Source of the DNA: an uncultured Bdellovibrionales bacterium
GTDB taxonomy: Bacteria; Bdellovibrionota_C; UBA2361; CAIXSY01
Reading direction: 5' to 3'
Assembly: GCA_964510065.1 (NCBI GenBank)
Contig: CAZEAC010000010.1
Span: 2,074 to 66,073, forward strand
Length of the DNA stretch: 64,000 nt
Part shown: piece by piece, positions 3,595 to 63,951 of the stretch
Position numbering within the stretch: position 1 is the stretch's first letter
How the letters are laid out: every line of letters starts with the position of its first letter
Made by a program: the position numbers and the translations under genes
The notes under the pieces: model-generated
Seen by the model: the letters and a program-made list of their open reading frames with translations, nothing else
Told to the model about the DNA's origin: nothing
The model's database searches: none

Positions 3595-3617
3595 CTTGAC
3601 GTTGAGATAGGGCCTAG

Positions 3618-3674
3618 CTCTCCGTGTCTCTGTGGTTTTTTGAAAATAAGATAAACCACAGAGACACGGAGAGC
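3618..3674. repeat. palindromic element, copy 1 (perfect 21-bp inverted repeat CTCTCCGTGTCTCTGTGGTTT / AAACCACAGAGACACGGAGAG with a 15-nt AT-rich loop)
   Basis: Read directly from the sequence. Lies between convergent gene ends (2860-3594 + and 3703-7254 -). A near-identical copy occurs at 33158-33206. Confidence 0.8.
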
Positions 3675-3702
3675 ACAGAGATGGAGCTGTGAGAAGTCCA
3701 GG

Positions 3703-9200: not shown

Positions 9201-9318
9201 CCATCCCCAATTTACGCCTCCTCGCGACGAAACCCGTGAGAAGTCCGGGCTAGTGCGCATGAGCGCAGTGTCGATATTTTTCGCATAACTTAGGTAGTCT
9301 CTGAAAAGGCAAGGTTTT

Positions 9319-9879
9319 ATGAGATTGCCGATAGTACTAATAATGCTGAGTATTTGCTCCCCGCTGCACTCGCAGGCTCCTTGGCCCAAAACACTCGAGA
9401 CCTTAACTGACGAGTCATTTACCGAGATTAAGGCGAGCACGCTCCATAAAGATATTTCTATAATGCAACGTGAAGATATCGATCAAAGCAAGCGCGTTCT
9501 TGGAATCTTGAAGCGCGATCTCAATCAAGACGGAACAAAGGAGATACTCATTGAGCATGATTTGGGGGCAGGTGGAGGCGCATATTATTCAATTTACCAG
9601 CAGCGTGGAGACAAACTCACTGCTATCGCAGAACTTCAGGGTAGTGAAATTGCCATTCTCGCCCCTTTCAATCACTTTGCGCAAATTGAACTTTGGAGTG
9701 GGTCGGGTGTCGAATATGAAATTCGCCTCCTCATGCGTTACATCAGGGGGCGCTATCGTTGTGTCCGCGTCGATCGCTTTAAAATTGACGGCGATACGCG
9801 CCGGTATCTAGAAACTGAAACTATTGATCAGTCAGACAAAGGAGAACGTGATAACCCCGCGACTTGGGAGATCAACTAA
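9319..9879 (+). CDS. secreted hypothetical protein
   Basis: Signal peptide MRLPIVLIMLSICSPLHSQA. No recognised domain. Confidence 0.5.
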   Translation: MRLPIVLIMLSICSPLHSQAPWPKTLETLTDESFTEIKASTLHKDISIMQREDIDQSKRVLGILKRDLNQDGTKEILIEHDLGAGGGAYYSIYQQRGDKLTAIAELQGSEIAILAPFNHFAQIELWSGSGVEYEIRLLMRYIRGRYRCVRVDRFKIDGDTRRYLETETIDQSDKGERDNPATWEIN

Positions 9880-9888
9880 GGGGCTCGA

Positions 9889-10626
9889 CTATTTCTTTGC
9901 AAACGACTGCACCAGCTGATCAATCTCGGTGTTCCAGGCGATATCGATGGTTCCTTGATGTTCGCGTACAAGCCCTAGAGTAAGCGCCTTGTTGGCAATC
10001 GAGCGTCGCTGCGTCTCGTCAAAAGTGTCTAGCCAATCGTTGCCAAATTTCTCGAAGAATGTGGCGTAGCCCCAGATATCTTCGGCTTTGAGCGATTTTT
10101 CATCCCTTATCAGCGCGAAGGTATTATTGACCCAGGTGCCGTCCTCTTTAGTTCCTACAAAGTTCGGCGCGACCGATGCATCAACGAGCTCTTCGATATA
10201 TCGTCCCCTGGTAAGATTGATGCTGCCCTGAAGCTCCTCGGGAATAGCAACTCCAGACTCAAGCACCTTCTGCATCCGATCTCCCTCGGTTTTCCACTTG
10301 TCGGTGTTGAAAAGGCTGGTAAGTAAACGGGTCATGGGGTTGTATTTTGCGTCAAAGTCCCTGATCTTCTGCATGGTACCGCCCCACTGCTTGCTCGCCC
10401 AGCCGTAAAACATCGAGGCGAGGCCTCCAGTATAATAGTCTGCTACTGCGAGGCCAATTCGCTCCTGTGTGGCCTGTATTTTCTGTTCTTCATTAGCACG
10501 GCTGCTTGCTATCTTTGCTAGATCTTGTCCTGTTTGCAGCACAATCATCGCGGTATTTCCCTGTGAGCTCCCCGCGGACTCCGCAGCGGAATAGGGGTTG
10601 TTTGTTGCTCCCTGAATTGTAGTCAT
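9889..10626 (-). CDS. hypothetical protein (245 aa)
   Basis: Clean ORF with coding-like composition. No motif recognised. Confidence 0.45.
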   Translation of the reverse strand: MTTIQGATNNPYSAAESAGSSQGNTAMIVLQTGQDLAKIASSRANEEQKIQATQERIGLAVADYYTGGLASMFYGWASKQWGGTMQKIRDFDAKYNPMTRLLTSLFNTDKWKTEGDRMQKVLESGVAIPEELQGSINLTRGRYIEELVDASVAPNFVGTKEDGTWVNNTFALIRDEKSLKAEDIWGYATFFEKFGNDWLDTFDETQRRSIANKALTLGLVREHQGTIDIAWNTEIDQLVQSFAKK

Positions 10627-10670
10627 TGGCTCTCCTTATTATTGAGCGAGTAGTTCTACTTTCTGTTCGA

Positions 10671-10836
10671 GGAAAGCCGCGAGAAGTTGCGTGCTTATTT
10701 CGTAGAACGGGAACCGCGCCGGTGCCGCCGCTGATGCCCATGCCATTTCGCCATGCCATTTCGCTCAGAGAGCGCGCGTGAAAGTGAATTGGCCAATAAA
10801 ATAAGTATTGCGTGGTCCCTGAGGGAATAAGCAAGG
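10671..10836. repeat. ~150-bp repeat, copy 1 (arrangement B-A, with an internal 13-bp micro-duplication CATGCCATTTCGC x2)
   Basis: Segment B (CCGCGAGAAGTTGCGTGCTTATTTCGTAGAACGGGAACCGCGCCGGTGCCGCCGCTG) and segment A (CCCATGCCATTT.GCTCAGAGAGCGCGCG.GAAAGTGAATT..CCAATAAAAT.A.TATTGCG.GGTCCCTGAGGGAATAAGCAAGG) recur at 11866-12013 in the order A-B. Confidence 0.85.
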
Positions 10837-11002
10837 AATAAGCAGGGGGCGCGCATGTAGGGAGTGGTAACTCTAGGATATGGTTACTTGCTGTCACCCC
10901 TCAAAAAGCTCCCTGAGTGGGCCTTTCCCCTTACACAGCAGCAGTGATGTGCTCACTGCTTCGAGAAGGCCGTATAATTACGATAAAAGAAGAATGGTCC
11001 TC

Positions 11003-11617
11003 CTAACAGTCTTCGCAAGTTTCAAACTTTGCCTTTAGCCGAAGCGCTCGATTTCCCTGATAAAGCTCGGCCATATCACCGCGCTGAATCTTAGGAATTA
11101 TAGCGTTACGATTTCTGCCAACGGAAAGACACGCTCGATCTGATTCGGCCAGTAAGCTTCCATCGGGAACACCGAGCATGACCGTAGTATGAGCCCCTAG
11201 TCCGACCCTCAGGCGAGGCGGATTGGCATCGTGGTTATATCCATAGCTCCATTGGCTCTCGAACCGAGGCACAAAGCACTCGGCGAAAGTCTTACCTCGG
11301 CGGCTTAAGCGAATCTTAAGCTGAAGCGAGTGCGCCAGCCTCTCCGCCTCTGCGATTGAAGCACGCCCCTCATTAGACAACGGAGATCGGTCGAAAACCG
11401 CAATCAGATTTAGAAATCTATCTTTAATTGCGCGCGATGCGTGTAGCATCTCCGTATCCACATCGAAGTTAAATTGAAATCTCACATCATGAGGATCGCG
11501 ACTCGCAGTCACGGTGAGATAGTTGGTACCGCGCGAGCTATAGGCGTTTAAAGGGACGGCCTGCGCCTGCGGCACAACAATAATAAAAATAAGAAGAAGT
11601 ACCATCAATGCCCTCAT
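11003..11617 (-). CDS. secreted hypothetical protein (204 aa) bracketed by the ~150-bp direct repeats
   Basis: Signal peptide MRALMVLLLIFIIVVPQAQA. C-terminal CEDC. No recognised domain. Confidence 0.55.
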   Translation of the reverse strand: MRALMVLLLIFIIVVPQAQAVPLNAYSSRGTNYLTVTASRDPHDVRFQFNFDVDTEMLHASRAIKDRFLNLIAVFDRSPLSNEGRASIAEAERLAHSLQLKIRLSRRGKTFAECFVPRFESQWSYGYNHDANPPRLRVGLGAHTTVMLGVPDGSLLAESDRACLSVGRNRNAIIPKIQRGDMAELYQGNRALRLKAKFETCEDC

Positions 11618-11865
11618 GCATCCTCCAAAATTATCGATGACGATCGAACTCTTTATAGAGACAGCCTATCTAAGCTCACTGGGCGTTGCAAAATTATAAT
11701 GGTTACAATGTAATGGTGACAATCGAAATGACACTATTGTGGCTTAAATGTCAGAGAATGCCGCAAAAGAATAAAGAGCCTATCAAGTAACAATGTTGCG
11801 TATGTGCAGACCGGCGGTCGCCCGCAATGGAAGAAGTGAAATTAACCCGCGACAGCTTCCTCCGG

Positions 11866-12013
11866 CCCATGCCATTTGGCTCAGAGAGCGCGCGCGAAAG
11901 TGAATTCCCCAATAAAATCAATATTGCGCGGTCCCTGAGGGAATAAGCAAGGAAAACCGCGAGAAGTTGCGTGCTTATTTCGTAGCACGGGAACCGCGCC
12001 GGTGCCGCCGCTG
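11866..12013. repeat. ~150-bp repeat, copy 2 (arrangement A-B); overlaps the 3' end of the downstream metalloprotease gene
   Basis: About 90% identical to copy 1 but circularly permuted (A-B versus B-A), suggesting tandem-unit origin. Confidence 0.85.
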
Positions 12014-13330
12014 CGTCTCTGCTGCCGCTCCGTTCTCCAGCGGGTCGGCACATGCGGTATAGCGTTGCTCGATGCTGCGCCGATTGGCCATGACAAGCGT
12101 GGACTGAAATAGAAATAGAAGCACAATCGCACCTAACAATCCGAAGATATAAATGAATGAATTAGGCTTCGCTGGTCTTTCAAAGCCCGGTGTTACGCCG
12201 CTTGCCAGCATTCGATCGTAGAGCGAAGGGTGTGTTGCGAAGGACTTCCCGACATGTGCTGGAAAAAGATTGTCCTGGTAGAGCTTTTCAAGTGCACTCG
12301 CATAGCGTGCAGGATCTTCAGTCTTTGTCCCATTATCTGCCCGATTCTCAAGACGCTGGCTTATAAGTGCGCTAAGGCAACGTGTGAGTAAAATTGCCAG
12401 CACAAGCGCAGGAAAAAAATAGAGCGAAGCATTCTCAAAAGTTGCAAGGAGCGGCCAAAGCCCAAGAAAGCTCATATAGAGAAAGAGCGGAATAAAGCGA
12501 GTAAGCTGGGCGATGCGATTTTCAGTGAGGTGCGCCAACTCATGACGCATAATCTGCTCTAGCTCTTGATCGCTCAGTATTTCCATAGCTCGGCTGGTAG
12601 CGGCGACGATGCTCCGAGAGGGAAGCGCGAAGGCATTGGCAATCGGCGATCTCATTTCGAAAACTTTGAGTTTTTCGGAAAGTGAAAATTCTTGCGCAAG
12701 AGGTTTCACAATTGAACGGAGCCGTTCCGAAGGTGGGAGAATAAGCCCGTAGAGTTTGAATACAAAGAGAGTGCTTCCGAGTTTGGTAAGGACCACAAAC
12801 AGAACAAAGGCGAGGATAGTTGCGTACAAAGCACCCCATTCAAACTCCGCAAGAAGTGTGTAGAACTGGCTCATGATGAGGCAGATAATAATGAAGTGAG
12901 TAAGCGTAGCAAGATTACCTAGAAAAAATGTCTTGCGATCAATTGTATGAGTAAACGTTGCGCGGCTAAATCGATATGCCGGGAATAGCGCGCCTAGATA
13001 CGCAGAGATCGCAAAAAGATTAGTCTCAAGTGCAGAGGGAAGTGGCGCAAAGCCATGATACAATAAGTTCGAGACCATAAATGTTGAAACTAATAACACT
13101 GCAGTCACACTTCCAAGAAGACTGCGCCAAGGATAGAGTATCCGTGCTCGGTCATACCACGGGAGCTCCCGACCGCGTGCGAGCTTCCGTCGAGCGATTT
13201 CTGCGATTATTGAAGTGAGAAGAAAGGAAAAGAGCATTACGAGACCAAGTTCAAGGAAGGTCTGTAATACAGGTGGAAGTTCTGGCCACACCGGCACAAA
13301 GCGGGAATAGTGCGCTGACAATTTCGTCAT
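11975..13330 (-). CDS. integral-membrane zinc metalloprotease, M48 (HtpX/Ste24)-like
   Basis: Multiple N-terminal TM helices. HELAH (HExxH) zinc motif in MRHELAHLTENR. The last ~13 codons lie inside repeat copy 2. Confidence 0.6.
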   Translation of the reverse strand: MTKLSAHYSRFVPVWPELPPVLQTFLELGLVMLFSFLLTSIIAEIARRKLARGRELPWYDRARILYPWRSLLGSVTAVLLVSTFMVSNLLYHGFAPLPSALETNLFAISAYLGALFPAYRFSRATFTHTIDRKTFFLGNLATLTHFIIICLIMSQFYTLLAEFEWGALYATILAFVLFVVLTKLGSTLFVFKLYGLILPPSERLRSIVKPLAQEFSLSEKLKVFEMRSPIANAFALPSRSIVAATSRAMEILSDQELEQIMRHELAHLTENRIAQLTRFIPLFLYMSFLGLWPLLATFENASLYFFPALVLAILLTRCLSALISQRLENRADNGTKTEDPARYASALEKLYQDNLFPAHVGKSFATHPSLYDRMLASGVTPGFERPAKPNSFIYIFGLLGAIVLLFLFQSTLVMANRRSIEQRYTACADPLENGAAAETQRRHRRGSRATK

Positions 13331-16972: not shown

Positions 16973-19366
16973 TTAGTTTAGCACACGTAACCCACTTGGC
17001 ATGCCCGGCTGTCCGACGTCAACAGTTTCGGCAAGTGTCGAGTAGGCCATGTTTCCTAGCGACAAGGTAAGCCCGTGCGAACTTATAGCGTACTCATCGA
17101 CGAGGAGGGGACGATCGGAGTATGTCGCCTGCAGCGAGCCGCCGAACGCAGTGACTGAACAGCCCCATGGTCGAAATATAATTTGCAGAGGAAAGTCTTT
17201 GTCGTAGATATCAAGAAACTTTGGCCCCAAGTCGCCGTATATCTCTTTCGCGTAGACCATTTTCCCGTTCACATATTGGGTAAACACGATACCCCATGGG
17301 AATTCCTTGAGTCCGTTAATCTGCTTATAGCGAAAGCGTGAGTCAAAATTACGGTACGTTCTTGCCTCGATCTGATAATAGTTATTGGGGTCCTGTCCAA
17401 GGGTAACTATAATACTTGCATCTTCGCCTACGGTTTTTGTCGCGCGTAAAGTTGCGCTAAACTTCCCGCTGCTACTCACAGGAAGCGCCCCTGAAAGCGC
17501 TCCATTGAGTGCGAGTTGAGTAATGCTGGTACTAACGGTAGCTGGGGTGGTATGTGTCTGACGTGTGCTTTTGTCGGTACAGCTAATTTTATAGTAGTAG
17601 GTCTGAGACGCTTGCAAATTAGGCAGCGCATGACGGTGATTCGTCTCGTATGCGCTCGATGTTACTTGATTGCCGTATGCTGTCGTCGGTCCGTACTCTA
17701 CTCGAGAGGCGCATGGAGTTGACGATGTCCAGCTCACTTCGACGGAATTTGAGCTGCCCAAAGATACCGCAATGTTGCTTAACTCCGGTGCCTGATTATT
17801 TGGAGTTAAAGAAATAATTCGTACGTTATCTGTTCCCGCCAAGACGCCCACATTCTCTAGTGAGGAGGTAAGATAGTTAGAACGTGAAGCGCTTATTCTG
17901 TATGAGCCCTGTGCTACATAATCAAAAATGTACCTGCCATGTAGATCGGTGACTGCTTTAAACTGCAATGGATTGCCATCTATCGCGGTGTTTCGTGAAG
18001 CGCTGTATGAAGCGAGTGTGACCTCTGTTCCTGGCAGTACCGTTTGATCGACATCTCGCACCGTTCCGCTGACAGTGCCTACGACAGCATCTCGGTTGAG
18101 AGCCGTGGCAATGGTCTTGGCAATATCCCAGCCTAACCGTTGCATGCTGCTTCGAGTATAGTCGAAAGGTACGAGGCCGGCGTCTGTGACAAGATTGACG
18201 CCGTTCCAGCCATCTTCGTCGGTTATTTCAAAGAATCGATAGTCCCAACCGCTGCCAAGAGAGTAATCATTCCAAAGCTCCACGTTTTTCACCATAATCG
18301 GCAGTGTGTAGTAATCACCCGTATGCTTAAGACCTGAGATAGCGTCCATTATGCCGGCATGTTTATGCGCCCATAAGCTATCGCGCATTGATCGGTAGCC
18401 ATAGCGCCCCGCAGCACCTGAGTGACACTCATAGCTGTAGTAAAGTGGTCCCTTATTATGAATCCACTGGTAGGCATATTGAAAAATTCCAAAATTTTCA
18501 GGGCAGGATTGATTTAATTTGGGCGGATCGAATTCTCCCTGCCCGCAGTTTTCAAGATCGGTCCCAAGCGAGTTCAACGCAGAGAGACCATAAAAAGCCG
18601 AGTCAACATTCACCAGGGGAGCAATAATCCAAGTGAAATTTTTTCGAAGGCTGTCTGCTAAGGAATCGTTTGAGAGGAGATTTCTTATGAGTCCTTCGGC
18701 CTGGTGTGGACAGGTTTGCTCGGTCGAATAGTGTGGACCAAAACGTAAATAGACCGGCTTCTTGTTTGCTTCTGGAACCGAGCTGTCGGTTATAATTATT
18801 ACTTTTACCGGCAATCCGTTTGGTTGTGTGGCGGTGCCAGGGGAGTACCCTACAATTCCGTCTTGGACAAGCGGATTCACGTGTGCAGCAAGTTTAAAAT
18901 AGGGGTTCCCCGAAAACTCATTGATCATCTGATCTATGTACGAAAAGGGCATGGGAATCCGGCTGACAATATGTGCGGTATTTTGTTCAATCGTGAAACT
19001 AAAGTTGGCGTAGGTACCAAATGCGCCGTCGAGAGTGACAAGTTTCGGTTTCTCGATTGAATTTGGCTGCATGTAATTATAAATCACGTATGCATTCACA
19101 TGCGTACTAAAGTCGTCAGCTGAGGTCGTGCTATTAATATTAACTCTAAAATTAAGCGTTCGTCCCTGAGCGCCTTCGACGACACAGTGAAAGTAGCTGT
19201 TGGCCGTTCCGTTCGGGAATGGTTTGGTAGTGAAGGTCACATTGTCGCCACTGATCACGACATTTTCACAGCTCGCGCCTTCGAAGTCTCCGCGCAAAGT
19301 ATAGGCGTCGGCCTGTTGCGCGCAGATAATTCCAAGCACGATTAAAAATGTTATTAAAGCCCTCAT
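16973..19366 (-). CDS. large secreted multidomain protein with a carboxypeptidase-regulatory-like (CarbopepD_reg) beta-sandwich and a fibronectin-III-like domain; possible M14-like N-terminal region
   Basis: Signal peptide MRALITFLIVLGIICAQQADA. GTVRDVDQTVLPGTEVTL...DLHGRYIF...GSYRISASRSNY resembles CarbopepD_reg. SWTSSTPCASRVEYGPTTAYG...QTYYYKISCTD resembles an FN3/PKD-like domain. Confidence 0.5.
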   Translation of the reverse strand: MRALITFLIVLGIICAQQADAYTLRGDFEGASCENVVISGDNVTFTTKPFPNGTANSYFHCVVEGAQGRTLNFRVNINSTTSADDFSTHVNAYVIYNYMQPNSIEKPKLVTLDGAFGTYANFSFTIEQNTAHIVSRIPMPFSYIDQMINEFSGNPYFKLAAHVNPLVQDGIVGYSPGTATQPNGLPVKVIIITDSSVPEANKKPVYLRFGPHYSTEQTCPHQAEGLIRNLLSNDSLADSLRKNFTWIIAPLVNVDSAFYGLSALNSLGTDLENCGQGEFDPPKLNQSCPENFGIFQYAYQWIHNKGPLYYSYECHSGAAGRYGYRSMRDSLWAHKHAGIMDAISGLKHTGDYYTLPIMVKNVELWNDYSLGSGWDYRFFEITDEDGWNGVNLVTDAGLVPFDYTRSSMQRLGWDIAKTIATALNRDAVVGTVSGTVRDVDQTVLPGTEVTLASYSASRNTAIDGNPLQFKAVTDLHGRYIFDYVAQGSYRISASRSNYLTSSLENVGVLAGTDNVRIISLTPNNQAPELSNIAVSLGSSNSVEVSWTSSTPCASRVEYGPTTAYGNQVTSSAYETNHRHALPNLQASQTYYYKISCTDKSTRQTHTTPATVSTSITQLALNGALSGALPVSSSGKFSATLRATKTVGEDASIIVTLGQDPNNYYQIEARTYRNFDSRFRYKQINGLKEFPWGIVFTQYVNGKMVYAKEIYGDLGPKFLDIYDKDFPLQIIFRPWGCSVTAFGGSLQATYSDRPLLVDEYAISSHGLTLSLGNMAYSTLAETVDVGQPGMPSGLRVLN

Positions 19367-19448
19367 GTAGTCGATCTCCGGTATTGATATTTGCAAGGCG
19401 CCATATGTTGGCTCATAGCGCTGTATACTGTTAGCAGGTAATGTATAC

Positions 19449-19633
19449 TAAGGAACCTCTGAAAAACTATGCATTTCGTCTTCGCTGGCCTTTCGGCGAT
19501 CTTTGCGAGAAAACATGCCGGGAAAATACTCGAAATAGCCCTGCTATTCCTGCGTTTTTCCCGGCATGTTTTCTCGCAAATCTCATCCAAAATTCCAGCA
19601 AATCCAAAACGCCTAGTTTTTCAGAGGTTCCCT
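19449..19633. repeat. nested inverted-repeat element: perfect 25-bp inner IR (TTTGCGAGAAAACATGCCGGGAAAA / TTTTCCCGGCATGTTTTCTCGCAAA, 29-nt spacer) inside a 20-bp outer IR (TAAGGAACCTCTGAAAAACT / AGTTTTTCAGAGGTTCCCTA)
   Basis: Read directly. Lies in the divergent intergenic region between the 807-aa secreted protein gene and cpaB. Confidence 0.8.
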
Positions 19634-19922
19634 AAAATACCTTGCCATAAATACCCCCGCGGTCGTTTCTTTGAAGAACTGCCGATCTCTAATGCTTATT
19701 GTATTCTACAGGATATTTGGCTAACCGGTCGCCTTTCAAGATCAGGCGATCTCCTTGTCGCCTACAAAGGTAGGCCGCATCGGTAAACGGAGCCCGTAAA
19801 TCGCGTCAGGGCTCTGTTCCGGTGAGAGTTGCGAGTCCGGAGGATAGTGCTGATAGAACGGCCATTCGTTCATTTCGAACCAAACCCTAGCGCCCTGGTC
19901 TGATAGTAAAAGGAACGGCTCT

Positions 19923-20813
19923 ATGCAGGGGAAATTTCATTCACAGTACAGGCAATATTCAGTACGAAGGACGCGGATTGCCGTGTGTATAGCGACGTCG
20001 CTCTCTCTAATCTTTGGAGTGGCGCTAGTTTTGGTCCTGCTTCCGCTTCGGACGGCTCCCAAGGTGCCGGTAAGCGTGGAGAAAAGCGAAGCAACGGCGT
20101 ATCGCGCAGTTAAGCTCTTTACCGTTGAAAGTGAAATCGGGGCCGGAACAGCGCTTGGCTCGGTTCGTGTTCGCGAGCTTCAATGGCCGGCGAGTGAAGT
20201 TTCGAAGGATGCGGTTCGTAACCTTTCCGACTTAGAAGGTCGCTACGCACGAATTACCCTGGTTCCAGGAAATCCAATTCGCTTGAGCGAGACAACCAAT
20301 GAGCGGCCATTGATTAATCCTTTAGGCTCGCTCATTCCACCCGGGTACAGGGCGATTGCCATCCAGATCGATGATGTGATTCGAGAAGAGAACTTAATTG
20401 GGCCGCAATCAATTGTCGATGTGACGTTAACCTATCGCGAGAGCGACAGGCTCAAAAGTAAGATAATCGTCGAAAATGCTCTTGTGGGCTCGCGAAATGG
20501 AGATATCGAGCCGTATAAAGAGAGTGACTTAAAGACTATCAAGCAGAGCCGGACACTTACCCTGGTAATAAAAACGGAGGATGCGCTTAAAATATCCGTT
20601 GCGCAGCAGCTTGGTAAAATAGGCTTACTTCTCAAAAGTGAAGCCGCTTCACGGGCGAGTCCCGGAGTATTAGAAACTGATGAGTTTAAAGTGTTGAATG
20701 GTGAGGGTGCGGAAGCACCAGGCAAGCTCGCCTGTCAGAGAGGTACCGCGGTAATTGATGGGCGAAAAGTTGTAATTGGTTGCGATGATTCACTGACCGC
20801 GCTACCAAAGTAA
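19923..20813 (+). CDS. cpaB: Flp pilus assembly protein CpaB/RcpC-like
   Basis: N-terminal TM anchor (IAVCIATSLSLIFGVALVLVLL) and a SAF-like region (VRNLSDLEGRYARITLVPGNPI). Size (296 aa) and architecture match CpaB. Confidence 0.6.
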   Translation: MQGKFHSQYRQYSVRRTRIAVCIATSLSLIFGVALVLVLLPLRTAPKVPVSVEKSEATAYRAVKLFTVESEIGAGTALGSVRVRELQWPASEVSKDAVRNLSDLEGRYARITLVPGNPIRLSETTNERPLINPLGSLIPPGYRAIAIQIDDVIREENLIGPQSIVDVTLTYRESDRLKSKIIVENALVGSRNGDIEPYKESDLKTIKQSRTLTLVIKTEDALKISVAQQLGKIGLLLKSEAASRASPGVLETDEFKVLNGEGAEAPGKLACQRGTAVIDGRKVVIGCDDSLTALPK

Positions 20814-33157: not shown

Positions 33158-33206
33158 ACTCTGCGACCTCCGTGTCTCTGTGGTTTTTAAGGTATTCAAA
33201 CCACAG
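33158..33206. repeat. palindromic element, copy 2 (CTCCGTGTCTCTGTGGTTT...AAACCACAGAGACACAGAG; one mismatch)
   Basis: Same core as 3618-3674. Lies upstream of recQ, between recQ and the divergent HEAT-repeat gene. Confidence 0.8.
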
Positions 33207-33346
33207 AGACACAGAGGGTGCAGAGTTAGTGTAAGAATACCCGGGATTGATGAGTCATTACCCGCCTACTCACTAACTGTTTAGTATCATTGTCTTTTTA
33301 ATCCGCACGCTACTGCGGCAAAATCGCATAACATTAGGGAATACGC

Positions 33347-49888: not shown

Positions 49889-50296
49889 GGGGGTGTCATG
49901 GTATCGACGGGATTTATGAGATCTATGTGAGCACGCCTAGGATCCGCAGGCCTAGTAAAAAAGGCGGAGAAACCTAAATGCAAACTCTTTTGATTTTGCG
50001 CAGAATGAAGAGCTGGCTATTGCCGCTTAACGTTCTGTAGATCGGTCCTCGAAAGACGACTGATCGGTTCTTATGCGACGCGCTTGTAATTGCATAAGGG
50101 CTTAAACTATTCGAGCTGGTCGCTGCAGCCGTTTGCCCTGCAGGGATGAGAAAATAGGCAGACTCGCTTGACGGAGATTCCGTAACAGTGAATCCAGATA
50201 GCTAAATTCGTCGCAAGGCGAAAAGTGCTGTTACTAAGCGTGTAGTGCATGTAGATTGAGACTTCTCGGACGCGGGTTCGACTCCCGCCACCTCCA
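49889..50296 (+). ncRNA. ssrA: tmRNA (ssrA); tag-like reading frame 49980-50030 encodes A-N-S-F-D-F-A-Q-N-E-E-L-A-I-A-A-stop
   Basis: 5' end GGGGGUGUCAUGGUAUCGACGGGAUUU. GUAAAAAAGGC precedes the resume codon. Tag ends in LAIAA-UAA. 3' end GGACGCGGGUUCGACUCCCGCCACCUCCA (T-arm and acceptor stem, CCA not encoded). Lies downstream of smpB. Confidence 0.9.
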
Positions 50297-50660
50297 GTTT
50301 TCCCATTCGGCATTCGAGCCCAGGGGCGGCCGCCCCTCTCGCTCGCTATGGCTCGCTTCTCCCCGCATCTCGGTTCGAATTGGTTCCCACCAGGTCCAGA
50401 CTTCGCCCCTCTGGGGCTTCGTCTGGCATGCCAGCTTTGCCGTGAAGCCTGTCGTCCCGAAGCTTTAGCGAAGGGCGACTATTCCCTTCGGCATTCTCGA
50501 GCCCAGGGGGCTCCGTCCCTTCTCGCTGCTGATTGCGGCTTCACCGCGATGACTCGAATTGGTTGCTGCCGCGTCAATGTTTTTCGCTTGGCACTTGGGC
50601 CCTTAGCGCGATGTAATTCGTCGCTCCGGCGGGTTCTTCTGGATTTACGGGCATCTCGCC
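50297..50660. repeat. two degenerate ~90-180-bp direct repeats resembling decayed copies of the ssrA 3' end (TCTCGGTTCGAATTGGTTCCCACC; GACTCGAATTGGTTGCTGCC)
   Basis: The blocks TTCCCATTCGGCATTCGAGCCCAGGGGC...CGGTTCGAATTGGTTCCCACC (50300-50392) and TTCCCTTCGGCATTCTCGAGCCCAGGGGG...GACTCGAATTGGTTGCTGCC (50483-50572) align at roughly 75% identity. They resemble the tmRNA T-arm/acceptor. Confidence 0.6.
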
Positions 50661-50803
50661 CACTTTGTGACGAATCCTGATGAGATTTGCGGGCTTAGGA
50701 CGTTGATCCTTCAGAATCGAATTTGCATTGTGAGAGAATGTTGATCGCTTGGATAGCTTCAATTATCAGGCATTTTTTTTAGTCGATTCTTGAAAAGCAC
50801 CTT

Positions 50804-51955
50804 TCATCTCGACTTTTGAGGTAGGAATGCAAAAACGATTTCTCTCCGAGCGCGTACCCCATTTTCAGTGCTTTCTATAAGCTGCATCTTTTTCAATGCC
50901 CCCAAATCGCGAACAAGAGTTTTTCTTGTTTTGCCTGCATAGGCTGCTGCAATCCGAGGAGAGATTTCTGGAATTTTTGCTACGGGGACGGGTGTAAAAT
51001 CCATAGCTAGTGCAAGATCGCGTCTGCGCTTTTCAGATTTGGATGTCTTCGCACCAAATAGCTCGTGTATAAGATTTCTCCAGGTCACATCAAATAATTG
51101 GTACTGAATCAATTTAAGCTGTTCCTTTAGCCCGTCAACAAAGCCTCTGATTGCATAATCGATAAACTGGATTGTGTCGCCACCAGATTGGCTTATGTAG
51201 TCGAGCTGACGATAATATTCATTACGAGTTTGGTTGTAGTGATTGCTTAATAGGTGTGCGGCAGCTGTAGGAACTTTTCCATTCAGAAGTAGCTGAAATT
51301 CAATAAGTCGTCCCGTGCGTCCATTCCCGTCTCCAAAGGGGTGTATAAGCTCAAAATACGCATGCGCCACTATTGCCTTCAGTATCCACATTCCTGTGTC
51401 GTATCCAGAGATTTGATTGAAGTCTGTAGCCAGCCATTTGCATAGTCCCTCCAGAAGATATTCGCAGTCTTCGAATGGCACGGCTCGGTATCGTCCGACA
51501 CCAACGGAATTCTTTCTGAATTCACCGGGTACGACGCCTTCTTCAACAGCCAACCCCTCAAGAACCATTTTATTGTATTCTCGAATCCGATCTATCGTCA
51601 CGGCTGATGGATTGTCACCGATCGCATCGTCCTTGATCTTGTTGCAAGCTTTTAGAATGTTATCGATTTCTTGACCGAGGTATTCCTGTGATGGTGGCAG
51701 TTCGAGTTTTTTTTCAATTCGTTGAATGACCTGTTCTTCTGACAGAGTGTTCCCCTCAATGGCAGTTGTAGCTCTTACGCCTTTCGCCAAGTAAAGGCTG
51801 TGAAGGTGATTTGCGATGACGGGGTGTAAGGGGGTGTTTGCAATGTGTTGGCACTTGGATTGTGCCTCGCCTAAACCAAGCCAAAGTGAAGGTACTGGTT
51901 TTCGCAAATCTAGGTTAAATTTTAACCAAGGATGTGTCTCTAAATATTTCCTCAA
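50804..51955 (-). CDS. Fic-family protein (AMPylase-type, with inhibitory helix motif and C-terminal wHTH-like domain)
   Basis: Fic active-site motif HPFGDGNGRTGR. Upstream inhibitory motif TAIEGNT ((S/T)xxxE(G/N)). Followed by a low-GC upstream region. Confidence 0.85.
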   Translation of the reverse strand: MRKYLETHPWLKFNLDLRKPVPSLWLGLGEAQSKCQHIANTPLHPVIANHLHSLYLAKGVRATTAIEGNTLSEEQVIQRIEKKLELPPSQEYLGQEIDNILKACNKIKDDAIGDNPSAVTIDRIREYNKMVLEGLAVEEGVVPGEFRKNSVGVGRYRAVPFEDCEYLLEGLCKWLATDFNQISGYDTGMWILKAIVAHAYFELIHPFGDGNGRTGRLIEFQLLLNGKVPTAAAHLLSNHYNQTRNEYYRQLDYISQSGGDTIQFIDYAIRGFVDGLKEQLKLIQYQLFDVTWRNLIHELFGAKTSKSEKRRRDLALAMDFTPVPVAKIPEISPRIAAAYAGKTRKTLVRDLGALKKMQLIESTENGVRARREIVFAFLPQKSR

Positions 51956-63071: not shown

Positions 63072-63142
63072 AAACCCGTGACGGTCCCACATGTCCCTAC
63101 TTTTCTGAGAAAGTAGGGACATGTGGGACCGTCACGGGTTTT
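63072..63142. repeat. perfect 32-bp-arm palindrome (AAACCCGTGACGGTCCCACATGTCCCTACTTT-ctgag-AAAGTAGGGACATGTGGGACCGTCACGGGTTT)
   Basis: Read directly. Overlaps the stop codon of the 63097-63951 gene and lies upstream of the flp-like operon promoter region. Confidence 0.85.
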
Positions 63143-63951
63143 AGAAAATCACCGCGCGCGCTTTGATCTTGCATATCGAAAATATCCACACCACTTTTAA
63201 CAAAGTATGCTGCGCTGCCGTCAGCCCAATACTGCGTGGTAATCTCGCGCCAGCCTCCGAACTTGAATTGCCAGCTGCTAGTCTCTGAAAAGGGAAACCA
63301 GGGGCTCCAATTTCTTTCGCCATCATCAGAAATTCGAAAAAATTCGGCGCCTTTTGCTCGATGGTGGAAGGTCGCCTTTCGTTTGGCAATCGGTGTGCGT
63401 GACGAGGTTGCCCCAAGATCAACCATCGTATAGTCGATTATGTGGTCAAAGTTAATATCACGATTGAAGATAACGTTGCCCTTGGTTCCACTTCGAATCC
63501 GAGAAGAGAACTCCGAGAATAGTGCTCGGCCGTCAAGTGACTGAGCTCCCTTCAAAATCATAATCCGATTGATTCCTTCGCGAAGTGCAGTAGAGAATAA
63601 AAAGGAGGTCGCCCCATCCTCACTCTTTAGTCGGTCATTAGTAAGCGCTTTACCGTTAATGGTGATTGAGTGCGCGAGCGAACTTATGTTCATAGCTCGG
63701 TTGAATCTTAGCTTCACCACAATATCTCCCGACGGAACAGCCGAGTCATGCGGCGGATCAACCGAAAGAACGTATGGATCGAGCTCTCTATAGATTCCTT
63801 TTGGTACGAATATCTTCACCCCGTAGCCGGGGATTCCAATGACAACTTTTCTATCGTTGCCTACCTGCAGCGATTCGCGCGCATCGAGCGCGTTAACATA
63901 GCTTGCACTTCCGATACCCAAGGTGCGCGCCATGCTGAAGCTAGAAGTCAC
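63097..63951 (-). CDS. hypothetical protein (at least 284 aa; may extend beyond the window)
   Basis: ORF. No recognised motif. Confidence 0.4.
   Translation of the reverse strand: MTSSFSMARTLGIGSASYVNALDARESLQVGNDRKVVIGIPGYGVKIFVPKGIYRELDPYVLSVDPPHDSAVPSGDIVVKLRFNRAMNISSLAHSITINGKALTNDRLKSEDGATSFLFSTALREGINRIMILKGAQSLDGRALFSEFSSRIRSGTKGNVIFNRDINFDHIIDYTMVDLGATSSRTPIAKRKATFHHRAKGAEFFRISDDGERNWSPWFPFSETSSWQFKFGGWREITTQYWADGSAAYFVKSGVDIFDMQDQSARGDFLKPVTVPHVPTFSEK

Follow-up and report, generated by a model that had tools for sequence, protein, structure and literature searches.

Gene content and repeats of the locus

In the window, that is, the whole 64,000-nt stretch of DNA analysed, two segments, A and B, each occur twice around a 204-aa ORFan, which lies between a gene for an M48-family (HtpX-like) membrane metalloprotease and a 245-aa gene (Table 1). 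A repeat search and blastn at word size 7 within the window found 62 of 64 nt identical between the A copies (97%, E=5e-26) and 81 of 88 nt between the B copies (92%, E=6e-32), and these pairs are the sole long direct repeats within the 64 kb. The sequence-only reading, which had noted two copies of about 150 bp and about 90% identity around the 204-aa gene, is borne out on this point. Copy 1 (10670-10838) has the order A-(17 nt)-B, with 2 nt of filler where A meets B, and copy 2 (11867-12013) has the order B-A, with B and A overlapping by AGGAA. The same five nucleotides stand at the left edge of each A copy and close each B copy on the right, and every breakpoint, as read from the sequence, has 0-5 nt of homology. 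The copies had also been called circularly permuted. Their order is indeed swapped, but all four segments, A(1), B(1), B(2) and A(2), lie in direct orientation and the repeats are therefore nested as A[B-gene-B]A, which is a better and simpler description than a permuted unit.

Table 1. Features of the repeat locus, listed from the 3′ side of the window coordinates to the 5′ side.
Feature	Position	Strand	Basis
M48-family (HtpX-like) membrane metalloprotease gene, 451 aa	11975..13330	-	Pfam PF01435, E=1.7e-14
A(2), functional M48 3′ end (12 codons + TAA, 11975-12013) and 25 nt of 3′ UTR	11950..12013	-	repeat search, ORF list
B(2), quasi-palindrome of 88 nt, 20 nt past the M48 stop; homology from 11865	11867..11954	.	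repeat search, folding
X, 1028-bp unique segment between the B copies, predicted self-contained transcription unit	10839..11866	-	ORF and promoter prediction
14-nt tandem TAATGGTNACAATG x2, overlapping the promoter of the 204-aa gene	11697-11723		
Predicted sigma-70-type promoter of the 204-aa gene, TTGTCA-18-TATAAT, 11/12 consensus match	11693..11722	-	promoter prediction
204-aa ORFan with N-terminal signal-peptide-like segment	11003..11617	-	ORF list
11-nt tandem micro-duplication GGAATAAGCA(A/G) x2, 3′ arm of B(1)	10824..10845	.	tandem search
B(1), quasi-palindrome of 88 nt; homologous to B(2) in fact from 10736	10751..10838	.	92% identity, folding
13-nt tandem micro-duplication CCATGCCATTTCG x2, 5′ arm of B(1)	10738..10763	.	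not in copy 2
A(1), displaced, non-functional copy of the M48 3′ end	10670..10733	-	97% identical to A(2)
245-aa gene, next downstream on the minus strand	9889..10626	-	ORF list

Divergence of the copies and reliability of the assembly

Copies 1 and 2 differ by about 6% overall, with nine mismatches in A and B (G/A, A/C, C/G, T/C, G/C, G/C, A/C, G/A and T/C). The divergence of A (2/64) and that of B (7/88) are statistically indistinguishable (Fisher p=0.30), which fits a single duplication of one contiguous stretch. At about 6% divergence the structure is old, and the details of its junctions may consequently have drifted.

A difference of this size also resembles strain-level variation, and the source is a MAG contig, both of which speak for a metagenome assembly artefact in which strain variants of one region were joined in series. 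The longest exact run common to the copies is, however, 29 nt, so that at k of at least 31 they share no k-mer and cannot be cross-joined. In addition, a Logan contig of 3810 bp (SRR16481186), which was assembled separately, matches both copies and all junctions at 100% identity, and A(2) completes a full-length M48 ORF. An assembly artefact is thus an unlikely source of the A/B structure, and we attach hardly any probability to it.

The protease gene and the displaced copy of its 3′ end

The protease has an HEXXH motif that is invariant in the alignment with its homologues. A(2) contributes QRRHRRGSRATK and TAA to the gene, that is, 12 sense codons and the stop, in agreement with the approximately 13 final codons previously ascribed to copy 2. 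On the minus strand, A(1) reads QRRHRRGSRSTK-TAA followed by 25 nt, and its end lies 44 nt from the ATG of the 245-aa gene, for which an AAGGAGA Shine-Dalgarno sequence was read from the sequence. By blastx, A(1) matches M48 residues 440-451 only, and no other M48 remnant was found near it. Two candidate interpretations of copy 1 were rejected: an M48 pseudogene remnant, because the match is limited to the 12-aa tail, and a real gene in the 53-aa ORF spanning B′-A′, which has no Shine-Dalgarno sequence and in whose frame 5 of 7 substitutions are non-synonymous. As a displaced copy of the M48 3′ end, A(1) indicates that an insertion or a rearrangement took place at this locus.

Segment B is a quasi-palindrome with a predicted hairpin and matched micro-duplications

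Segment B is an imperfect palindrome, and its profile matches its own reverse strand in nhmmer. Folded end to end, B beats shuffled sequences on both strands, both as RNA and as DNA (z -1.6 to -3.45; -2.2 to -3.45 for the end-to-end hairpin of B(1)). The whole A/B unit folds no better than shuffles (z -0.5 to -1.2). Among the Rfam covariance models, tmRNA was the sole gathering-score match in the window, and positions 10500-12200 gave zero matches even at E ≤ 5. The folding and covariance searches that had been suggested for the 150-bp unit returned a predicted hairpin in B, but neither a whole-unit fold better than shuffles nor an Rfam match at the locus.

The 13-bp micro-duplication already recognised in copy 1 is present, and an 11-nt tandem duplication lies on the other arm of B(1); the two pair with each other in the predicted hairpin and extend its stem. 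Only five tandem duplications with a period of at least 10 occur in the 64 kb, two of them being these on the opposite arms of B(1).

Such a structure raises the alternative that B, alone or together with A, serves a function and was kept after its duplication, either as an RNA hairpin in the transcribed spacers of a co-directional gene cluster (an mRNA 3′-end stabiliser, a processing site or an attenuator) or as a DNA hairpin site. Both copies do lie 3′ of minus-strand genes, 20 nt past the M48 stop and 164 nt past the stop of the 204-aa gene, and the hairpin is supported in both. The arm insertion of copy 1 is matched on the opposite arm, lengthening the stem, and the outer stem (first 11 and last 25 nt of B) is identical between the copies. 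We nevertheless consider a functional role rather unlikely, given the blank Rfam result and the whole-unit folds. The stability of B has no consistent strand preference, inner-stem substitutions fail to compensate one another on the transcribed strand, and no U-tract terminator was found on the minus strand; two sequences, moreover, give covariation no statistical power.

The bracketed segment carries an ORFan of native composition

The 204-aa gene has a Shine-Dalgarno sequence in addition to its predicted promoter, which is a strong one. The GC content and codon usage of X and of this gene are typical of the window, with no compositional mark of foreign origin. No homologue of the 204-aa protein was found among approximately 15 billion proteins overall: a search of 5.8 billion clusters returned the self-match alone, and a full HMMER scan of 1.84 billion representatives returned the protein itself together with three weak matches that were tandem-repeat artefacts. 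The protein has no Pfam match, Y1_Tnp included, and neither it nor the 245-aa protein matched any entry in Pfam, NCBIfam, PHROG, PADLOC or PDB. Single-sequence AF2 models reached a pLDDT of 36 for the 204-aa protein and of 38 for the 245-aa protein, the latter model being unusable.

Searches for further copies, recombinases and relatives

Neither blastn at word size 7 nor nhmmer --max with A and B profiles detected a third copy of A or B in the 64-kb window. Counting further copies had been put forward as the check on a mobile or recombination element, and, run on these 64 kb, it returned the two known copies only. Exact 20-mers of A or B had no match in GTDB species genomes, JGI metagenomes or IMG/VR, apart from a single metagenome match of 22 nt, which was rejected as a chance match with dissimilar flanks; A and B were likewise not found in plasmids and phages. 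A Pfam scan of 26 neighbouring proteins revealed no integrase, transposase or reverse transcriptase domain.

The best homologue of the M48 protein is 36% identical, and M48 homologues share no neighbouring genes with this locus. For GlnRS, encoded 1.5 kb away, the best match is 67% identical, and none of the 80 GlnRS loci from GTDB genomes, which come from many phyla, carries the neighbouring genes. An exact look-up of genes near the window ends and of a 376-aa gene gave no record. Judging from these comparisons, the organism is without a close relative in any searchable collection. It is present in the sibling sample SRR16481187, in which the contig ends at 10546, short of the repeats. The refuting condition named in the sequence-only reading, a unit confined to this locus and free of polymorphism, was applied to the 64 kb and to two sibling samples.

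These searches bear on the possibility that the locus holds two mosaic copies of a dispersed intergenic repeat (MITE-, REP-, ERIC- or BOX-like) that would have A and B as its modules and multiple copies elsewhere in the genome. REP, ERIC and BOX families comprise tens to hundreds of dispersed copies, and mosaic module orders are known for BIME and BOX elements. B resembles REP/BIME, ERIC/IRU and BOX elements in being an imperfect palindrome, 88 nt long, that lies in a transcribed spacer between genes of the same direction; its size is typical of such families, and the genome does contain a different small family of hairpins, dispersed at 3617-3680 and 33158-33226. Here, however, two copies lie 1.1 kb apart instead of being scattered, they are coupled to a piece of coding sequence, A being partly M48 coding sequence, and neither a further copy in 64 kb nor a match in the public collections was found. 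Terminal inverted repeats with target-site duplications are absent as well. Membership of a dispersed family is accordingly quite improbable.

A local rearrangement is the favoured origin

We favour, with a probability of roughly 45%, the interpretation that the locus is a rearrangement scar, namely a one-off local segmental duplication that left two copies, as opposed to part of a mobile or dispersed repeat family. About 150 bp would have been duplicated, made up of A (64 bp; the final 12 M48 codons with the stop and 3′ UTR) and the adjoining 88-bp quasi-palindrome B. Mechanistically, the likeliest course would be that very short homologies (AGGAA) allowed a template switch during replication or an illegitimate recombination, an event promoted by the hairpin-forming B. 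The 13-nt and 11-nt tandem duplications on the hairpin arms and the 2-nt filler at the A|B joint, all confined to copy 1, may represent slippage scars. The direction of the event, that is, which copy is derived, is something we only infer. The presence of only two copies in 64 kb, the lack of public matches, the native composition of X and the lack of nearby recombinase domains all point to such a scar.

Quasi-palindromes are template-switch hotspots in E. coli (PMC7202029), and long-distance template switching at junction homologies of 4-15 bp generates duplications in the same species (Slack et al. 2006, PMC1428787). The locus resembles the cases treated in these two papers, the former from the Lovett laboratory, in its breakpoint homology of 0-5 nt (AGGAA), in an event centred on an imperfect inverted repeat, in small templated or slippage duplications at the edges and in a local source and copy (1.1 kb). 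The cases documented there are, however, simple tandem duplications of 7-32 kb or point and short-patch changes inside a palindrome, whereas here 150 bp reappears in non-tandem, permuted form. Such an outcome would take several consecutive switches, or else an intermediate that is circular or tandem, and this requirement argues against a scar, as do the age of the structure, given the possible drift of its junctions, and the matched duplications on both hairpin arms, which could instead reflect selection for a functional hairpin. We know of no documented bacterial case with exactly such a permuted outcome.

The sequence-only reading had inferred a repeat-mediated cassette insertion or exchange site, possibly a mobile element, derived from a tandem array. 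An insertion or rearrangement at the locus and a bracketed, self-contained gene are retained from that proposal. The mobile or recombination element is not: with no third copy in 64 kb, no integrase or transposase in the neighbouring proteins scanned and a native composition, a mobile-element interpretation is unsupported. Nor is derivation from a tandem array required. The corresponding scenario, in which an array A-B-A-B-A had its middle A replaced by a segment carrying the 204-aa gene, would account for the presence of both A|B and B|A junction types, and AGGAA at both ends of the A-B unit could drive slippage duplication. It is disfavoured because the 1028-bp insert must have replaced the middle A exactly at the homology boundaries; blastn, nhmmer and blastx found no A remnant at either end of X, and at least three events would be needed. 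We regard it as very improbable.

The principal alternative is that a small circular DNA inserted into the M48 3′ end by a single crossover, of Campbell type or site-specific. The ancestor would have had the order M48-A-(68 nt)-245-aa gene, and a circle A-B-X-B would have recombined within A, such that A(2) now completes M48 and A(1) is the displaced original end. Topologically, a crossover in A between a circle [A-B-X-B] and the chromosomal A yields exactly the observed order. A simulated excision by crossover between the A copies removed 1280 bp and left an intact 451-aa M48 ORF whose stop lies 68 nt upstream of the ATG of the next gene, an operon-like junction with a good Shine-Dalgarno sequence; the cargo, furthermore, is a self-contained ORFan with its own promoter. 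Without a recombinase of its own, such an insert would be a CIME-like integrative element that is either decayed or non-autonomous and may be mobilised in trans. CIMEs are a recognised class of elements in which attL and attR persist after loss of the integrase (PMC5704250). With such integrative elements the locus shares direct repeats that bracket the insert, a displaced pseudo-3′ end on the far side and an ORFan cargo with its own promoter. The CIME-type att arrangement, in which direct repeats include the 3′ end of the target gene, is found in A(1)/A(2) (64 nt, last 12 M48 codons and stop), and since repeat A contains the 3′ end of its target, the M48 gene stays intact, as with integrative elements.

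A size of only 1.28 kb, however, sets the insert apart from such elements, as do the lack of any integrase or related autonomous element in the searches and the extra internal 88-bp B repeat, which is foreign to att systems. The scan of neighbouring ORFs for an integrase was negative, the internal B duplication would require a separate, unexplained event, the composition is native, and neither a second instance nor an empty site is known from the collections searched. Circle insertion is thus possible but doubtful.

Comparison with other known systems

As in an integron, a single gene is bracketed here by direct copies of an imperfect palindrome of about 90 bp. An attC site is an imperfect palindrome with the core sites R″ (RYYYAAC) and R′ (GTTRRRY), an intI tyrosine recombinase gene and attI lie adjacent, and the cassettes form an array and are promoterless. 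An attC site or integron cassette was rejected: the strands of B contain no GTT or AAC, such triplets occurring only in A and off consensus, there is no intI or attI, no Phage_integrase domain was found in the 26 neighbouring proteins, and the single "cassette" has its own sigma-70-like promoter with an 11/12 match.

MITEs and other IS-derived elements have terminal inverted repeats, a flanking target-site duplication and many dispersed copies. At this locus no identical short duplication flanks B or A-B, there are only two copies in 64 kb, and none was found in the public collections searched. IS200/IS605-type elements and PATEs carry subterminal hairpins at both ends, are served by a Y1 (HUH) TnpA in cis or in trans and occur in multiple copies; the hairpin at each end of [B-X-B] is a resemblance only. 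The 204-aa product has no Y1_Tnp match and no further copies were found in 64 kb, although a TnpA might act in trans from elsewhere in the genome.

In a DGR, the VR lies at the 3′ end of the target gene with the TR nearby, mismatches fall at TR adenines and a reverse transcriptase is adjacent. A TR/VR pair was rejected, given that the nine mismatches have no adenine bias and that the neighbouring proteins contain no reverse transcriptase domain. CRISPR was rejected because there are two copies only and no array.

It is also conceivable, albeit as a quite remote prospect, that the 1.28-kb unit is a miniature, non-autonomous single-gene cassette that differs in kind from integron cassettes, MITEs and CIMEs. 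Such a cassette would integrate by recombination within a 64-bp att-like site at the M48 3′ end and would have its ends marked by the 88-bp hairpin-forming direct repeats, and a recombinase from elsewhere in this deep-branching, uncultured lineage would mobilise it in trans. Should the A/B unit be found elsewhere in the genome, or excision junctions in reads, the locus would hint at a novel type of very small gene cassette, in a lineage without cultured or sequenced close relatives.

Implications for the bracketed gene

As it stands, the finding is ordinary to mildly curious and carries little weight. Read as a local duplication, the locus would be a clean example of a hairpin-prone gene 3′ end duplicated around a neighbouring gene, in which an apparently "permuted" repeat resolves more simply into nested direct repeats. 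The orphan gene that they bracket could later be deleted precisely by crossover between them, a loss that is possible by simulation. In addition to the A×A product described above, a simulated B×B crossover removed 1116 bp.

Nested direct repeats around an ORFan gene

The repeat region was read directly from the sequence and analyzed by repeat searches, blastn and profile searches for A and B with nhmmer --max. These two segments are the sole long direct repeats within the 64-kb window, and all four copies lie in direct orientation (4/4). In copy 1, A is followed by 17 nt (AT plus one additional 13-nt unit) and then by B, whereas copy 2 reads B-A, with the two segments overlapping in AGGAA. 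The sequence-only reading had described repeats in permuted order bracketing a secreted-protein gene. This description is correct, and the arrangement is clearer as nested repeats, A[B-X-B]A, in which the unique segment X (10839-11866, 1028 bp) holds the 204-aa ORF between the B copies. The 13-nt tandem micro-duplication that it had placed in copy 1 was recovered, together with a second one, making two in copy 1 and zero in copy 2.

Positions of repeats, genes and breakpoints at the locus (L, flank of A(1) on the 245-aa gene side; M48, protease gene; a slash marks each breakpoint boundary)
Feature	Position (copy 1, or gene)	Position (copy 2)	Strand	Size	Details
Segment A	10670-10733	11950-12013		64 nt	Identity 62/64; E=5e-26 within window
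Segment B	10751-10838	11867-11954		88 nt	Identity 81/88; E=6e-32 within window
Tandem micro-duplication	10738-10763			13 nt	5′ arm of B(1)
Tandem micro-duplication	10824-10845			11 nt	3′ arm of B(1)
M48-family (HtpX-like) membrane metalloprotease	11975..13330		-		Pfam PF01435, E=1.7e-14
204-aa ORF	11003..11617		-	204 aa	ORF list
245-aa ORF	9889..10626		-	245 aa	ORF list
Breakpoint L/A(1)					..TGTTCG/AGGAAAGCC
Breakpoint A(1)/B(1)					..CCGCTG/AT/GCCCATGCC
Breakpoint B(1)/X					..AAGCA/AGGAA/TAAGCAGGGGG
Breakpoint X/B(2)					..CCTCCG/GCCCATGCC
Breakpoint B(2)/A(2)					..AAGCA/AGGAA/AACC
Breakpoint A(2)/M48					..CCGCTG/CGTCTC

We treated the repeat structure as real. A separately assembled Logan contig of 3810 bp from run SRR16481186 matched window 9223-13032 at 100% identity, spanning both copies and all junctions. 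The longest exact run common to both copies is 29 nt; they thus have no common k-mer at k of at least 31, and an assembler therefore cannot cross-join them. In SRR16481187 the same organism was found at 100% identity, in a contig that stops at 10546, before the repeats. An assembly artefact is accordingly scarcely credible. The Logan contigs of the two runs (L001 and L090) both break exactly at window 9223, between the GlnRS gene and a 186-aa gene, and this may point to a repeat or to a junction that varies between strains.

Genes at the locus

The relevant genes all lie on the minus strand, in the order 548-aa ORF, 376-aa ORF, M48, 204-aa ORF and 245-aa ORF. The HEXXH and downstream motifs of M48 are invariant in an alignment with homologues. 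As the sequence-only reading proposed, copy 2 completes this gene: A(2) contributes the final 12 codons (QRRHRRGSRATK), the stop codon TAA and 25 nt of 3′ UTR, and B(2) begins 20 nt past the stop. A(1) keeps this frame and its stop (QRRHRRGSRSTK-TAA) with no gene body ahead; blastx over the whole interval recovered M48 residues 440-451 and no other remnants. A(1) ends 44 nt before the start codon (ATG) of the 245-aa gene, whose ribosome-binding site, AAGGAGA, is a good one. On the opposite strand, a 186-aa secreted protein (9319-9879) adjoins the 245-aa gene and gave a weak sub-threshold match to an NCBIfam XAC2610-related domain (E=0.002, 18.6 bits, cut-off 35).

X is predicted to be a self-contained unit with promoter, ribosome-binding site and ORF. 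The predicted sigma-70-like promoter (TTGTCA-18-TATAAT, 11722 to 11693) agrees with the consensus at 11/12 positions, and a 14-nt tandem (TAATGGTNACAATG x2, 11697-11723) overlapping its -35 and -10 hexamers could be an operator. The 204-aa gene has a GGAGG ribosome-binding site, and its product starts with a signal-peptide-like segment. It is an ORFan, matching only itself among 5.8 billion clusters; an exhaustive HMMER search through 1.84 billion representatives returned itself and three weak matches, all tandem-repeat artefact proteins. Its GC, GC3 and codon usage are mid-range for the window, and there is therefore no compositional sign of recent foreign origin.

Tests for a mobile element

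No third copy of A or B was detected in the window by blastn or nhmmer --max. Scans with exact 20-mers drawn from the best-conserved blocks of A and B, which miss copies below roughly 95% identity, gave no match in GTDB contigs (one genome per species) or IMG/VR. Across JGI metagenomes, IMG/VR and GTDB, the sole match was 22 nt in one metagenome (L088), without flanking similarity, a count equal to chance expectation. The whole 1.5-kb locus, searched by blastn in 'distant' mode, found nothing in plasmids or phages. It is quite improbable that the A-B unit belongs to an unseen dispersed family.

Pfam searches of 26 proteins, which cover ~10 kb on the upstream side of the locus, 18 kb on the downstream side and the neighbourhood of the tmRNA, revealed no integrase, transposase, HUH or reverse transcriptase domains. 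The neighbours (GlnRS, a GntR regulator, an M14-like carboxypeptidase, Tad pilus genes and GH31) are ordinary chromosome. In a comparison with about 15 billion proteins, all five encoded at the locus are singletons or near-singletons; the best homologue of M48 has 36% identity and unrelated neighbours. For GlnRS, the best identity is 67%, matches are spread over many phyla, and none of the 80 GlnRS loci compared carries the neighbouring genes. The organism thus appears, from these comparisons, to represent a deep-branching, essentially unsampled lineage.

The suggestion of a miniature mobile or recombination element is unsupported by these tests on copies in the window, neighbouring enzymes, public collections, plasmids and phages, and we give little credence to the remaining novel reading, a mini-cassette with hairpin boundaries that targets the 3′ end of M48. 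An IS or MITE was rejected since terminal inverted repeats with a target-site duplication are absent and the unit is not multi-copy in the 64-kb window or public collections. An integron cassette was rejected as well (B has no attC core sites, no intI was found, and the 204-aa gene has its own predicted promoter), as was a DGR (copy mismatches lack adenine bias, and the scanned neighbours include no reverse transcriptase).

B is a quasi-palindrome that folds end to end (stem CTCAGAGAGCGCGCG / CGCGGTCCCTGAG), with its termini forming the outer pairs and an AT-rich loop of ~30 nt, and its profile weakly matches its own reverse strand in the window (nhmmer --max). For either strand, and for RNA as well as DNA, its folds beat those of dinucleotide shuffles (z -1.6 to -3.45), whereas A (z about 0 to +1) and the whole A-B unit (z -0.5 to -1.2) fold no better than shuffles. 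Membership in an Rfam family was rejected, with no match at the gathering score or at E<=5 within the repeat locus. Taken by itself, B is similar in form to intergenic palindromes of the ERIC/REP type, but its copy number within the 64-kb window tested is not.

Origin of the arrangement

The locus is most economically read as a scar left at a hairpin-prone site by a single, old, local rearrangement, one that happens to flank an ORFan on both sides. A simple tandem duplication is ruled out because the spacings are unequal (1280 vs 1116 nt) and it cannot produce A-B-X-B-A. Ahead of a circle crossover, we favor local replicative template switching or illegitimate recombination, at a probability of roughly 0.45. 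The 149-nt B-A stretch, comprising the M48 3′ end and the adjoining hairpin, would have been copied to the far side of the 204-aa gene, amounting to one exact circular period with AGGAA at its bounds; copying in the converse direction is also possible. The B hairpin would have triggered the event by stalling the fork, leaving slippage scars on the derived copy. In E. coli, two studies describe quasi-palindromes as template-switch hotspots (PMC7202029) and duplications arising by long-distance template switches with junction homology of 4-15 bp (PMC1428787). Here, homology is 0-5 nt at all breakpoints, with AGGAA the recurrent one as read from the sequence.

Divergence between copies (2/64 in A vs 7/88 in B) does not differ significantly (Fisher p=0.30), which fits a single duplication of one contiguous stretch, now ~6% diverged; the event would therefore not be recent. 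In the fold of the extended copy 1, the additional 13-nt and 11-nt units pair together and lengthen the stem. Two micro-duplications flanking one 88-nt hairpin are not a coincidence, because only five of period at least 10 occur in 64 kb. These matched insertions on both B(1) arms are the best argument that B is a retained functional hairpin, a reading we nevertheless consider improbable.

A single crossover within A, between a chromosome (M48-A-245aa) and a circle [A-B-X-B], would yield the observed order in one step. Simulated excision restores an intact M48 ORF, placed 68 nt upstream of the gene that follows, and the geometry is that of elements integrated in gene 3′ ends and of CIMEs, which have lost their integrase (PMC5704250). 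The locus works like an att-bounded decayed integrative element and is at most a putative one. This crossover does not account for the duplication of B inside the unit, for the unit's tiny size and native composition or for the absence of any recombinase among the 26 neighbouring proteins, and we regard it as the main rival, though unlikely. Derivation from a former tandem array, as the sequence-only reading implied, with an insertion replacing the middle A, is disfavored as very improbable: the insertion would have to fall exactly at the homology boundaries, and the lost A left no trace by blastn, nhmmer or blastx.

Other hairpins and a possible islet in the window

Beyond a tmRNA gene at 49889-50299 (Rfam 140 bits) come a direct repeat (TCGAGCCCAGGGG..., 50314-50337 / 50497-50520) and then a Fic/DOC-family gene (50804..51955, minus strand), whose codon usage is the most atypical in the window and whose GC is the lowest. 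No integrase was seen in the Pfam scan of this neighbourhood, and 49889-51955 could be a small islet at ssrA. Strong hairpins at 3617-3680 and 33158-33226 (dG about -48 to -50 kcal/mol), 29.5 kb apart and both at gene ends, have a common stem (GTGTCTCTGTGGTTT / AAACCACAGAGACAC; 22-29 bp). They make up a small, dispersed family of palindromes, REP-like or terminator-like, whose sequence is not related to that of A or B. A long hairpin of ~210 nt (19437-19646, dG about -101 kcal/mol) comprises two imperfect nested inverted repeats (arms of 60 nt, 77% complementary, and 49 nt, 78% complementary). It occupies the intergenic space between two divergent genes, that of the M14-like carboxypeptidase (16973..19396, minus strand) and an RcpC/CpaB Tad-pilus gene (19923..20813, plus strand). 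ORF 63097..63951 (minus strand) overlaps at its 3′ end (63097) with an inverted repeat (63072-63141, dG about -66 kcal/mol) that is perfect over 32 nt, has a loop of 6 nt and also takes in the sequence just past the ORF.
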